Below, one piece after another: positions 1,324 through 41,641 of a DNA stretch of 43,024 nt (position 1 is its first letter; each line of letters opens with the position of its first letter). Made by a program: the position numbers and the translations under genes. The stretch lies in the NCBI GenBank assembly GCA_045635705.1, contig JAZTWE010000001.1:1-43024 (forward strand), given 5' to 3'. The notes under the pieces were generated by a model, which did not search any database, was not told the origin of the DNA, and worked only from the letters and a program-made list of their open reading frames with translations. Source of the stretch: Candidatus Enterousia sp. (GTDB lineage: Bacteria > Pseudomonadota > Alphaproteobacteria > Rs-D84).

Positions 1324-2742
1324 ATGAATATTCAATTTTCTGATTTGATTGCAAACGCGCCGAACGCCCCAGGCATATACCGCATGTTTGACATTGACGG
1401 CACCCTGCTGTATGTCGGCAAGGCCAAGAATTTGGCCAAACGCCTGCAACAATACACTGACATATCAAAATTAGAATTACACAAACAGGTAATGCGCACA
1501 CTGGTCACACGCGTTGATTGGGAAATCGTTCCAACAGAATCCGATGCATTGCTTCGGGAACAAGAGTTAATAAAAACCCTAAAACCCAAATACAACATCA
1601 TGCTAACCGATGGCAAGATGTATCCAATGCTGGCATTAACTGCGCACGAATATCCACGACTATTAAAATTTCGCGGACGCATTTCCCAGCGTCGCGATAT
1701 CTATGGTCCATACCCATCGGTATCGGCATTAAACGAAACAATAAAAACGATACAAAAGGTATGCCAAATTCGCACCTGTACCGACACATTTATGCGCAAC
1801 CGCACCCGTCCATGTTTATTACACCAAATTGGTCGGTGCAGCGCACCATGTTGCATACCACAAATCAAAAAATATGCAGAAAGCGTGCGTATAGCGCGAA
1901 AAATCTTGACCGGTGACAGCGAACCAATTATCGCCGACTTGAACAAACAGATGAACACATTTTCACAACAAATGGATTATGAAAATGCCGCCATTGCGCG
2001 CGATAAAATCATCGCACTCACCCACACATCAAATCGCGGTATACGCACAGTTTCAAGACATAGCGCGAATTTAGACTGGGACAAAAATGTATCAGAACTG
2101 GAAAAATGGATTGGCGTAAAAATCGAATCTGCCGCGGTATTTGATAATTCACATCTGTTCGGCAAACAGCCCGTTGGCGCAATGATAACATTTGGTCACG
2201 ACGGTTTTATTAAATCAGGATACCGCCATTTCAAACTGTTGGATAAATCCCGCGCCGGCAATGATATTGCAATGATGGCTGAATTTGTTCGTCGCGCAAC
2301 ACAACGCGACACAAATACAAGTTTGATAATCGTTGATGGTGGACGTGCCCAATGGAACATTGCCAGCCGTAATTCTAATGGCATCCCTGTAATGGGCATT
2401 ACCAAGGGCGTTGTACGCGACGGCGACGAACACTTTATTTTACCCGACGGTACCGAATCGCACGACCTGGCCAAGGACAGTCCGCTGTTCCTGATGCTGC
2501 GCGCGGTTCGCGACGAAGCGCACAGATTCGTAATTACATATCACCGCAACACACGCGCAAAGCAGATGACTGCATCTGTACTGGATGAAATTGACGGCAT
2601 TGGCCCATCGCGCAAGCGCGCCCTGTTGCAGCACTTTGGGTCAGTACACGCGATTATGGATGCCGACCTGCGTGCATTACAAAAAGTTCCCGGGCTGGGA
2701 AAAAGTGCCGCCGAAAAAATATATGCCCATTTTCATCAATAA
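1324..2742 (+). CDS. uvrC: Excinuclease ABC subunit C (compact, about 472 aa)
   Basis: GIY-YIG motif (GIYRMFDIDGTLLYVGKAKNLAKRL), Cys cluster (CQIRTC...CLLHQIGRCSAPC), UVR domain (MDYENAAIARDKI), endonuclease region (DNSHLFG...DGGRAQ) and C-terminal (HhH)2 (IDGIGPSRKRALLQHFGS...VPGLGKSAAEKIY). The likely start is MNIQFSD at 1324, inside track ORF 1267..2742. Confidence 0.9.
   Translation: MNIQFSDLIANAPNAPGIYRMFDIDGTLLYVGKAKNLAKRLQQYTDISKLELHKQVMRTLVTRVDWEIVPTESDALLREQELIKTLKPKYNIMLTDGKMYPMLALTAHEYPRLLKFRGRISQRRDIYGPYPSVSALNETIKTIQKVCQIRTCTDTFMRNRTRPCLLHQIGRCSAPCCIPQIKKYAESVRIARKILTGDSEPIIADLNKQMNTFSQQMDYENAAIARDKIIALTHTSNRGIRTVSRHSANLDWDKNVSELEKWIGVKIESAAVFDNSHLFGKQPVGAMITFGHDGFIKSGYRHFKLLDKSRAGNDIAMMAEFVRRATQRDTNTSLIIVDGGRAQWNIASRNSNGIPVMGITKGVVRDGDEHFILPDGTESHDLAKDSPLFLMLRAVRDEAHRFVITYHRNTRAKQMTASVLDEIDGIGPSRKRALLQHFGSVHAIMDADLRALQKVPGLGKSAAEKIYAHFHQ
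1885..1898 (-). repeat. Copy (13/14) of the dispersed 14-mer CGCGCTATACGCAT, inside uvrC
   Basis: The plus strand reads gtgcgtatagcgcg, the reverse complement of CGCGCTATACGCAc. Confidence 0.8.
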
Positions 2743-2800
2743 GTGATATAATCATCGTATTCATATATAATTATGAATGATTAAAAAAGGAGAAAAACAA

Positions 2801-3403
2801 ATGAAATTCTTTGTAAACTTTTTATCAGCATTTCGCATTTTTGCATCTTTTGCGATTATACCAACATTGATGTTCCAATGGTACTGGGTGACATTTATCC
2901 TGTTTGCATTGGGCGCAATTTCTGATTGGTTTGATGGATTCCTGGCGCGTAAATACAATGTATGCACAAAAATCGGTGGCGTAATGGATCATATTGGCGA
3001 CAAATTATTGGTGGTCAACACACTGATTATGTTAACTGTTATGATGCCGGTATGGTTTATCGTTGTACCTGTAATCATTATGATTGCACGCGAATTGTAC
3101 ATCAGTGGCCTGCGCGAATTCCTGGGCACACAAAAGATTGAAATGCCGGTGCCAAAGGCGCGCTTTTCAATAGGCAAGATTAAAACCACACTGCAAATGA
3201 TAACAATCTGTGCATTCTTGTTAATCTTTGCAATCAGCACATTGATTACCCCCGACACATCCAGTCGCTTGATTATGTTCTTGATTTATGTTTTACCCCA
3301 GATTGGCATTTGGGGATTGTGGCTGTCACTGTTGGCATCTGTATGGTCTGCAACCCAATACACATTCACATTTGCTGAAAAGATTAAAAAGATAAAGAAA
3401 TAA
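2801..3403 (+). CDS. pgsA: CDP-diacylglycerol--glycerol-3-phosphate 3-phosphatidyltransferase (CDP-alcohol phosphatidyltransferase family)
   Basis: CDP-alcohol motif DWFDGFLARKYNVCTKIGGVMDHIGDKLLV and a multi-TM profile. A strong RBS (AAAAGGAGAAAAACAAATG) favours the ATG at 2801 over the track start at 2777. Confidence 0.85.
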   Translation: MKFFVNFLSAFRIFASFAIIPTLMFQWYWVTFILFALGAISDWFDGFLARKYNVCTKIGGVMDHIGDKLLVVNTLIMLTVMMPVWFIVVPVIIMIARELYISGLREFLGTQKIEMPVPKARFSIGKIKTTLQMITICAFLLIFAISTLITPDTSSRLIMFLIYVLPQIGIWGLWLSLLASVWSATQYTFTFAEKIKKIKK

Positions 3404-3406
3404 AAT

Positions 3407-3420
3407 CGCGCTATACGCAT
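3407..3420 (+). repeat. Perfect copy of the dispersed 14-mer CGCGCTATACGCAT, directly after the pgsA stop
   Basis: taaaatCGCGCTATACGCATtaaaac, followed by a terminator hairpin. Confidence 0.9.
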
Positions 3421-3421
3421 T

Positions 3422-3450
3422 AAAACTGGGCTTTTTGCCCAGTTTTAATT
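3422..3450 (+). terminator. Rho-independent terminator of pgsA
   Basis: AAAACTGGGC-TTTTT-GCCCAGTTTT hairpin with a T-rich tail. Confidence 0.75.
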
Positions 3451-3561
3451 TATTGTTTTACCAAAAAATCCCCCCGATAAAACGACACTTAAAAAAACAT
3501 CAAAAAAACTACAAATTATCGCTATAAATCCCTATTGTTTTATGATATAATTAACCGAGAG

Positions 3562-40882: not shown

Positions 40883-40926
40883 TTTCTTACGATATTGACA
40901 TTAGCACACAGGAATAATTTCCGAAA

Positions 40927-40955
40927 GTAAAAAATCCCCTGGTTGCCCAAGGGAT
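40927..40955 (-). terminator. Terminator of the SOD-like lipoprotein gene
   Basis: An imperfect 9-bp hairpin ATCCCTTGG/CCAGGGGAT followed by T6 on the minus strand. Confidence 0.6.
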
Positions 40956-40977
40956 TTATCTTACAAAACGCGCTAAA

Positions 40978-41529
40978 TTATTTTTCCAATTGGCCCCAGC
41001 CAGCTTTATAGCCACCGTCGCGTTCCAGCCAGATTTTCGCACCATTCAATTGTGCTGCACTCATACCCTGAATCATAAATGTTTCGTCTAACTTACGACT
41101 CATACCTGTTTCCAACATTGGCAATTTGACATTGATTGGTGTTTTATTACAGCATCCTGTTTCACCGTATGCACACATACCGCACTTTGCTAATTTAACT
41201 GTATACGGCACACCCGGGCGCAGGTCTTTCAAGTCAACAACCATTTTCAAACCATTATCAGTATCATGGAATTTGATATGTCCCATGTGTGATACGCCAC
41301 CCTTGCTGCTGCGTGTATACATTTTTGCATAAACCTTATCAATATCTGCATTTTCATATGTCTGATACACAACAATAGAATCTGATTCAATAACCTCTAC
41401 TGGTTGTGGTGCGCGATGATGTTGCTTGTGCGCGGCATGCTTATTTGGACACGACGAACATCCTGCCAAGACAGCTGCGGCCGCCAATACAGATGCAAAT
41501 GTAACTGCTTTTTTTGTTAAGACTTTCAT
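40978..41529 (-). CDS. Lipoprotein with a Cu/Zn-superoxide-dismutase-like fold signature but lacking the metal-binding His residues
   Basis: Lipobox in MKVLTKKAVTFASVLAAAAVLAG|C. GHIKFHDTDNGLKMVVDLKDLRPGVPYTVKLAKCGMC parallels the SodC pattern G.v.f....g.v.v...l.gL.pG.HGFHIHE.G.C, but YTVKLAK replaces HGFHIHE. A perfect RBS (AAAGGAG) precedes the ATG at 41529. Confidence 0.35.
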   Translation of the reverse strand: MKVLTKKAVTFASVLAAAAVLAGCSSCPNKHAAHKQHHRAPQPVEVIESDSIVVYQTYENADIDKVYAKMYTRSSKGGVSHMGHIKFHDTDNGLKMVVDLKDLRPGVPYTVKLAKCGMCAYGETGCCNKTPINVKLPMLETGMSRKLDETFMIQGMSAAQLNGAKIWLERDGGYKAGWGQLEK

Positions 41530-41602
41530 ATGATTTCTCCTTTGTTTCATTTGGGTTACGACATTGATTGTATAATAAAACACCCACCTTTTCGCCAGGT
41601 TT

Positions 41603-41617
41603 GATTCCCTAGGAATC
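41603..41617. promoter_or_regulatory. Palindrome GATTCC-CTA-GGAATC in the divergent SOD-like/Dps-like intergenic region (operator candidate)
   Basis: 6-bp inverted arms read directly from the sequence. It sits 10 nt from a perfect copy of the 14-mer. Confidence 0.3.
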
Positions 41618-41627
41618 ACCGGAAATC

Positions 41628-41641
41628 ATGCGTATAGCGCG
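41628..41641 (-). repeat. Perfect copy (reverse orientation) of the dispersed 14-mer CGCGCTATACGCAT
   Basis: The plus strand reads atgcgtatagcgcg. Confidence 0.9.

Follow-up and report, generated by a model that had tools for sequence, protein, structure and literature searches.

We analyzed a 43,024-nucleotide (nt) stretch of DNA from Candidatus Enterousia sp., order Rs-D84 (hereafter, the window), in which a 14-nt word, CGCGCTATACGCAT, recurs both behind stop codons and inside genes. Ca. Enterousia bacteria of the order Rs-D84 live in the gut and have genomes of <1 Mb. To our knowledge, Rs-D84 comprises widespread, uncultured gut symbionts with reduced genomes whose regulation and chromosome biology are almost undescribed. 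The window encodes UvrC, PgsA, TolB, DnaA, DprA, SufBC, GatCAB, and MiaB, several Cys-rich secreted proteins, a weak SNase-like nuclease, and a type IVb pilus set with a T2SSE ATPase, T2SSF, a PilO-like protein, a secretin, and TcpQ.

Four exact copies of the word occur in the 43 kb, at 3407-3420(+), 32929-32942(+), 37072-37085(+), and 41628-41641(-), and no exact match arose in 100 dinucleotide-preserving shuffles of the window. When up to two mismatches were allowed, we observed nine sites (four perfect and five near) against 0.26 expected. The 14-mer and its sub-words were the top over-represented GC-containing 10- to 12-mers in the window, at ~100 to 1000 times the expectation of an order-3 Markov model. 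The shuffles and Markov expectations rule out chance or composition as the source of the word and, with the mismatch counts, bear out the strong over-representation claimed in an initial annotation of this DNA. The perfect copies and the near copies at 1885(-), 2035(+), 9192(-), and 14639(-) lie where that annotation placed them, and its assignments of copies to uvrC, the pilus ATPase gene, a CopG-like ribbon-helix-helix (RHH) gene, sufB, and gatB were correct. Its near copy at 29811-29824 was off by one base and belongs at 29810-29823(-). A shorter variant that it listed, ATGCGTATACGC, is present at 38706-38717 but did not score as belonging to the family in the extended-motif scan.

An asymmetric box of ~26 nt has the 14-mer as its core; in it, an A-rich flank is followed by CGCGCTATRYGCAY and then by KWTTYCYGG. 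A position matrix built from 25 contexts revealed an A-run at positions -5 to -1 and GAWWTCYGGG at positions +15 to +24, whereas the flanks had been annotated as unconserved, and our extended-motif scan found the box flanks at coding copies as well. The word alone is barely palindromic (fold of -2.7 kcal/mol, z = -1.7). A literature search found no paper containing the word or its sub-words. In Rfam 15, searched with gathering and E-value thresholds, only tRNA-Phe reached threshold and no sub-threshold match fell at the word sites, ruling out a known RNA family for the word. The box thus appears to be undescribed.

We examined relatives in two ways. An exact-word scan of one genome per species, all figures from which refer to the matches listed, gave mostly single, chance-level matches and at least seven blocks in uncultured Alphaproteobacteria, two carrying the label Ca. 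Enterousia. The word is therefore present in related genomes, and six of the seven Rs-D84 blocks listed align to the window with 70 to 83% nucleotide identity and conserved gene order. We also sampled 80 metagenomic loci around gatB (0.89 Mb), together with loci around tolB, tatC, and dnaN (individual loci carry L numbers below); the dnaN-centered loci came from wordless lineages only and are uninformative on word density.

In these relatives, the pattern GCGCTAT-NN-GCA had AC at the variable dinucleotide in 24 instances, GT in 24, AT in 3, GC in 2, and no other dinucleotide, while 0.83 Mb of unrelated control DNA yielded one match apart from the AC match used to select each locus. Positions 9 and 10 of the word thus define AC and GT dialects and rarer GC and AT dialects, which are largely uniform per genome: the window, L120, L121, and L153 use AC; L128, L130, and L136 use GT; and L042 uses mostly GC. 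Orthologous sites downstream of perM, downstream of a gene for a 302-aa membrane protein, and upstream of a superoxide dismutase (SOD)-like gene carried AC or GT depending on the clade. A stable hairpin within the word was rejected, as its fold is weak (-2.7 to -3.9 kcal/mol) and is not maintained on one strand when the dialect changes.

When clustered by their flanks, the high-quality copies fell into a handful of orthologous contexts. The copies had been described as scattered, but they are not placed at random: of the four perfect copies, one is in a gene and three are intergenic, with two of the latter 3 to 4 nt past a stop codon. The copy at 3407-3420(+) begins 3 nt past the TAA stop codon of pgsA (3401-3403) and immediately precedes an intrinsic-terminator hairpin at 3421-3449(+) (fold of -21.6 kcal/mol, z = -5.6). 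The copy at 32929-32942(+) begins 4 nt past the stop codon of perM, which encodes an AI-2E transporter, in the spacer between the convergent genes perM and ruvX and 5' of a bidirectional terminator, the hairpin of which spans 32945-32970(+) (fold of -22.1 kcal/mol, z = -3.1). The third intergenic copy, at 41628-41641(-), lies ~100 nt 5' of the start codon of a putative SOD-like lipoprotein gene without a Pfam match and 12 nt 5' of a conserved operator/promoter-like block; in GT-dialect relatives, the word at this site begins 4 nt past the stop codon of a gene with a DUF2798 domain. Further contexts are downstream of the 302-aa membrane-protein gene, which precedes perM, where the copy is present in relatives and absent from the window, and upstream of a gene of the MCRA (oleate hydratase) family just past the right end of the window.

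In four of five independent intergenic contexts, the word started 3 to 7 nt past a TAA stop codon on the same strand, for which we roughly estimate a chance probability of ~3e-4 given the spacer lengths. Between co-directional genes, 11 instance clusters were in the sense orientation and none antisense, although only ~5 of these are truly independent. Most intergenic copies lie just 5' of a terminator hairpin, and in two contexts no terminator follows the word. The adjoining hairpins vary in sequence between sites and lineages. Some convergent genes are separated by two back-to-back copies, each 4 to 17 nt from the stop codon of its own gene, and these inverted pairs form perfect 19-bp terminator stems (-32.7 kcal/mol in L042 and -26.8 kcal/mol in L132, L139, and L163).

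Orthologous sites also differed by the presence of the element. The site downstream of perM (15 instances in relatives) held the word in the AC, GT, or AT dialect or as an inverted pair; low-GC lineages had only an 8-nt spacer, L124 had the hairpin only, and others had word and hairpin. Downstream of pgsA in L042, the hairpin is present and the word is absent, so that the difference amounts to just the word, and in the spacer from the 302-aa gene to perM, alleles differ by ~30 nt. By blastn with window positions 3388-3444, the word and hairpin at 3407 were ~84% identical over 50 nt to the units downstream of perM in L032 and L118. The word at 3407 also stands at a synteny breakpoint between pgsA and dnaA. 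These genes are convergent neighbors 36 nt apart in L429/L430 (2133-2169), and in the window ~16 kb separates them (3404-19570), with a Cys-rich protein gene, pilus genes, tolB, the copG-like gene, an aldolase gene, and others in between.

We found coding copies in gatB (sense), uvrC (two antisense and one weak sense), and sufB (antisense), and one antisense coding copy in an unrelated Enterousia contig (L076). The perfect copy at 37072-37085(+) encodes (A)R-Y-T-H of GatB. The widespread peptide at this position is TRARY-I-N/E-E-F/Y-GLS, and the word-spelling version, RARY-T-H-EFGLS, was confined to the AC-dialect clade, with the T-H version and the word found together in L120, L121, L123, L153, L032, and L092. 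In uvrC, the copy at 1885-1898(-), CGCGCTATACGCAC, has one mismatch and lies antisense to codons for V-R-I-A-R. The site reads V-R-I-A-R-K in the window and M-R-I-A-R-K in L083, which gives a perfect complement in the latter, and it reads V-A/Q-L-A-R-R, which is not word-like, in L042, L426, and L429, amounting to a change from V[AQ]LAR to [VM]R[IT]AR at the word-bearing site.

Two more copies follow within uvrC, a weak sense copy with two mismatches at 2035-2048(+), CGCGGTATACGCAC, which is conserved in L083, and a decayed antisense copy at 2054-2067(-), CGCGCTATGTCTTG. The ortholog of the decayed copy in L042 and L207 encodes N-N-A-H-S-A and is a perfect complement of the GC-dialect word. 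The segment at 2035-2067 therefore holds a word-like copy and a complementary copy 11 to 13 nt apart, an intragenic inverted pair that is conserved in L083 and has the same architecture as the intergenic terminator pairs. The sufB copy at 29810-29823(-), GTCGCTATACGCAT, has two mismatches and matching flanks, lies antisense to N-A-Y-S-D, and scored 28 with the position weight matrix (PWM). A subset of lineages has this word-like segment, G-N-N-A-Y/H-S-D (AGNNA[YH]SD), flank included, and low-GC lineages mostly have G-D-N/G-S-H-S-D. The dialect at sufB is independent of the intergenic dialect, with L069, L166, and L176 using AC between genes but GT or GC at sufB, and the sufB site may therefore be partly coincidental.

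These comparisons of aligned sequences indicate that substitutions altering amino acids created the gatB, uvrC, and sufB copies, in word-bearing lineages only. Coding copies made by substitution on both strands argue for a pressure that acts on the word as double-stranded DNA or on each of the two transcripts, and against insertion of a mobile unit. The proposal that the constraint acts on the nucleic-acid word and not on a peptide was upheld, and a peptide-driven repeat is ruled out, because reading frames and strands differ between copies and the proteins were changed toward the word.

Three further matches in the window are doubtful. A degenerate copy at 24114-24127(+), CGCGCTGCACGCAA, in the open reading frame of a small basic protein (PWM score of 23), may be due to chance. 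The two-mismatch matches at 9192-9205(-), in the pilus ATPase gene, and at 14639-14652(-), antisense in the CopG-like RHH gene (14537-14761), fell below the lowest threshold tried in the extended-motif scan; the latter site reads CGCGGAATGCGCAT in L200 to L208, where it is kept through coding constraint. By the same scan, the window contains no copy between 3.4 and 29.8 kb except for such doubtful matches.

Analysis of the surrounding DNA indicated that the box is sparse and localized. The seven listed blocks with a perfect word came from seven different metagenome-assembled genomes, and the region syntenic with the window, in which six of them lie, is ~5% of such a genome, a pattern that tens to hundreds of copies spread evenly would not produce. 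On the 94-kb contig of L092, the listed matches comprised just one 8-kb block. We found no copies in ~35 kb of new flanking DNA in relatives (~10 kb from word-bearing GT-dialect lineages and the rest from lineages with a GC-dialect copy in uvrC only). The flanks of tolB (dnaN, ppa, efp, asmA, and others) contained no intergenic copy, with the GC-dialect word in uvrC being the only copy in these lineages, and 10 kb upstream of tatC in GT-dialect relatives contained none. From the matches listed and the sampled loci, we estimate ~5 to 10 perfect or near-perfect copies per genome. A subset of Rs-D84 thus carries the box at fixed orthologous places around uvrC-pgsA and around sufB-perM-gatB-SOD. 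This neighborhood includes dnaA, and in relatives the uvrC-pgsA sites adjoin dnaA, dnaN, and gyrB.

What might read this box? Near-identical copies in which positions 9 and 10 change together at orthologous sites suggest that the box is read by a co-evolving, sequence-specific, trans-acting factor, and positional conservation, copies in genes and spacers on both strands, and low copy number in one neighborhood likewise point to a sequence-specific reader. We tentatively favor, at somewhat below even confidence, the reading that the box is the site of a co-evolving sequence-specific DNA-binding factor. In such a model, a trans-acting DNA-binding protein would read the ~26-nt box and co-evolve with its dialect, and the bound box would serve as a polar gene-end element, a roadblock-type element, or a chromosome-architecture element near dnaA (and, in relatives, dnaN and gyrB). 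Coding copies on both strands and the perfect terminator stems of the inverted pairs support action at the DNA level independently of strand. The motif, its distribution and positional conservation, the dialects, the remodeling of coding sequence, and the low copy number were all observed; from them we infer a reader, its protein nature, and the role that its binding would have. The initial annotation had offered the binding site of an abundant DNA-binding protein as an alternative to DNA uptake, and a binding protein does fit better than uptake, but "abundant" does not apply.

Several known systems bear comparison with the box. Sal-box/TTF-I, mTERF, and Tus-Ter are possible functional analogies. 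Like parS/ParB, matS/MatP, Noc binding sites (NBS), and Tus-Ter, the box occurs in few near-identical copies in one neighborhood, in genes and spacers, and is conserved between species, and Tus-Ter sites are also asymmetric and polar. Unlike in a Tus-Ter fork trap, the orientation of the box follows local gene direction, and unlike parS, matS, and NBS, the box lacks dyad symmetry. Its sequence is unrelated to parS, a 16-bp palindrome, and no canonical parS lies nearby: TGTTNCACGTGAAACA with one mismatch or fewer was absent from every Rs-D84 locus, and the few two-mismatch matches were all coding. GC skew in the window is negative throughout and tracks gene strand (approximately -0.25 over minus-strand genes and -0.03 over plus-strand genes).

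Other observations weigh against a DNA-binding protein as the reader. The absence of dyad symmetry also sets the box apart from most bacterial operators. Proximity to the origin is unsupported, because the window contains dnaA but neither a GC-skew switch nor a DnaA-box cluster. The independent intergenic contexts are few (~5), and the copy-number estimate is limited to the matches listed and the sampled loci. It is not obvious why a DNA-binding site should begin 3 to 7 nt past stop codons and always point in the sense direction, as in four of five contexts, and this placement points instead to a role linked to RNA or translation. Furthermore, the variation at positions 9 and 10 comprises all four purine-pyrimidine combinations, which G-U wobble with an RNA partner could tolerate. 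With the reader being either protein or RNA, a box that is letter-perfect at the same gene ends across species, switches dialect in concert, forced amino acid changes, and forms a terminator when paired provides a concrete handle on a sequence-specific reader in Rs-D84.

The possibility that the word acts as RNA, at the start of the 3' untranslated region (3'-UTR) or in an intercistronic or 5' leader region, is the main rival, to which we assign perhaps one chance in four. In one variant, the word and its hairpin would form 3'-UTR sibling small RNAs with the word as the seed, pairing with complements in uvrC, sufB, and other mRNAs; in the other, the word would be the site of an RNA-binding protein controlling termination, processing, or stability. 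The exclusively sense orientation between co-directional genes, the stop-codon spacing in four independent contexts, and the strong hairpins after 3407 and 32929 are consistent with either variant, as are the inverted pairs, which give each convergent gene its own sense copy 4 to 17 nt past its stop codon. Known 3'-UTR-derived sibling small RNAs similarly have a conserved single-stranded stretch from the stop codon followed by a terminator, share several identical putative seeds, and find stretches complementary to them inside other mRNAs. Most well-supported coding copies (two in uvrC, one in sufB, and the one in L076) are antisense, so that the mRNAs hold the complement, and the R-Y dialects are wobble-compatible. 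The perfect gatB copy, however, is a sense copy, the inverted pairs bury the putative seed in a 19-bp stem, and the sufB dialect of L069, L166, and L176 does not match the intergenic dialect of the genome, so that seed and target dialects do not always agree. Substitutions in the word showed no excess of wobble-tolerated changes, two contexts have no terminator after the word, and Rfam gave no match.

We consider it improbable that the word is a selfish or mobile mini-repeat, of the type of repetitive extragenic palindromes (REPs) and their inverted doublets (REPINs), miniature inverted-repeat transposable elements, or IS200 ends, copied behind stop codons by a transposase or recombination. 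The unit would be the word or the word with its terminator hairpin, and the targets would be AT-rich. Such copying could account for the presence/absence polymorphism, with just the word differing downstream of pgsA and ~30 nt in the spacer between the 302-aa gene and perM, and for the ~84% identity of the 3407 unit to those downstream of perM in L032 and L118. Like REPs and REPINs, which are mobilized by REP-associated tyrosine transposases (RAYTs), the box is extragenic at the 3' ends of co-directional or convergent genes, occurs in inverted doublets with hairpins, and has a family-specific sequence. A related genome (L208, 770-1009) encodes a 79-aa Y1_Tnp fragment of an IS200/IS605- or RAYT-type transposase, but no 14-mer lies near or flanks it, and we saw no other Y1_Tnp fragment; the box thus has no associated RAYT. 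The word is also not an imperfect palindrome of 20 to 40 nt, having almost no internal palindrome, and the hairpins beside it are not the same from one site or lineage to the next. The box is present in very few copies, its sites have remained orthologous over deep divergence, the coding copies came from point substitution rather than insertion, and viral contigs lack copies beyond chance.

We regard as still more doubtful the proposal of the initial annotation that the word is a DNA uptake sequence (DUS), for which a pilus-associated receptor would prefer word-bearing DNA and biased uptake with recombination would spread the word, making this a third, low-density system beyond those of Neisseriaceae and Pasteurellaceae. 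Several qualitative hallmarks do match. The core is non-palindromic with AT-rich flanks, copies occur in coding and intergenic DNA in both orientations, dialects (AC, GT, GC, and AT) are lineage specific across copies, inverted pairs serve as terminators, coding copies were made by amino acid changes, and the repair gene uvrC contains three copies. The organism also lacks nucleotide biosynthesis (PMC12306168) and encodes a type IV pilus, DprA, and the weak SNase-like nuclease. These sequence traits match those published for DUS and for uptake signal sequences (USS) (PMC3630211; bioRxiv 10.1101/2025.10.24.684340). Like the DUS of Neisseriaceae, 10- to 12-mers recognized by the minor pilin ComP, the box is non-palindromic and has dialects, inverted terminator pairs, and coding copies in either orientation, including in a repair gene. 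Like the USS of Pasteurellaceae, which have a 9-mer core, it has informative AT-rich flanks and terminator pairs, and proteins were altered to fit the word.

Genome-wide abundance is the part of the resemblance that failed. Published uptake sequences are limited to Neisseriaceae and Pasteurellaceae, number hundreds to thousands per genome with about half in terminators (bioRxiv 10.1101/2025.10.24.684340; PMC2346458), and can fill up to ~2% of a chromosome, genome-wide (PMC2346458; bioRxiv 10.1101/2025.10.24.684340). From the matches listed and the sampled loci, the density of the word is 1 to 2 orders of magnitude below that of known systems (~1 per 1 to 10 kb) and is not genome-wide. The low copy number, the synteny of six of seven listed blocks, and the ~35 kb of flanking DNA without a copy therefore do not support a genome-wide uptake tag. 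Unlike Neisseriaceae DUS, the box has ~5 to 10 copies, is ~26 nt long, and occupies few, ancient, fixed orthologous positions rather than forming a turnover population, with a strict sense orientation beside stop codons; unlike Pasteurellaceae USS, it is sparse and localized.

The sampled DNA contained DprA, the only competence gene evidenced, and the type IVb pilus set; across the sampled loci, we saw no pilin, ComEA, ComEC, or ComP-like gene and no type IVa pilus. DprA, being near-universal, is of little diagnostic value for uptake. Type IVb secretin and TcpQ genes lie beside sufB in all sampled lineages, including wordless ones, so that a correlation between pilus and word was rejected. In the window, the pilus genes form two blocks, at 6649-11348 (T2SSF, T2SSE, the PilO-like gene, and a 220-aa gene) and 25638-28217 (secretin and TcpQ), near which we recognized no pilin gene. 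A variant in which a component of the type IVb pilus reads a sparse uptake or self-recognition sequence concentrated near genome-maintenance genes (uvrC and the dnaA-dprA region) is likewise very unlikely; if true, this nucleotide-auxotrophic alphaproteobacterial symbiont with a reduced genome would have the first uptake sequence beyond those of Neisseriaceae and Pasteurellaceae. As DUS hallmarks (dialects, terminator pairs, repair-gene copies, and proteome remodeling) can occur in a low-copy element, genome-wide density should be checked before such a word is called a DUS.

The remaining candidates were dismissed: a canonical parS or DnaA-box cluster at an origin, as both are absent; a Chi- or KOPS-like skewed word, as orientation follows the local gene, both strands are used under uniform GC skew, and 14 to 26 nt is too long; a sigma-70, sigma-54, or extracytoplasmic function (ECF) sigma promoter, as by inspection hexamers and spacing misfit and two copies would fire straight into terminators; resemblances to an XerC arm, OxyR or NsrR sites, or a marbox, as they are partial or coincidental; and phage-borne copies, as two IMG/VR scans (AC and GT dialects) gave chance-level single matches without the extended motif.

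Other elements were evident in the window and its relatives. The operator/promoter-like block, at 41530-41615(-), reads TTCCTAGGGAWTCAAACCTGR .. TATAMAAT .. CGTAACC .. GGAGA upstream of the family of putative SOD-like lipoprotein genes. The block contains the palindrome ATTCCTAGGGAAT and was found in ~25 related loci, also in lineages without the 14-mer. The Cys-rich proteins are large secreted proteins encoded at 3535-5751, 5889-6608, 17707-19503, 24258-25298, and 22255-23166, with no Pfam family except a weak DUF5874 match, and may be surface or host-interaction proteins of the symbiont.

A structured intergenic repeat of ~110 nt occurs at 25534-25640(+) in the window, in five copies in L200 (5044-8108), in three in L207, and at 6543-6683 in L204. 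Its core, CGTAGTGTACA..CTACATGAG, and its outer arms, TTAGAATGATTTAGATA and TAGATGAATTATTATAAT, are conserved, and the inner stems are wholly different between copies. RNAalifold predicted 40 pairs from nine copies, 22 of them with compensatory double changes, and the repeat had no Rfam match. We regard the repeat as a candidate new RNA structure or hairpin element in Rs-D84 genomes. Finally, a second recurrent terminator-type word, AAAAATCCCGC / GCGGGATTTTT, occurs four times in the window, as at 42080-42136 and other gene ends, and its 10-mers AAAAAATCCC and AAAAATCCCG were found in 23 to 36 contexts in relatives; this word resembles a favored terminator stem and not a specific signal.

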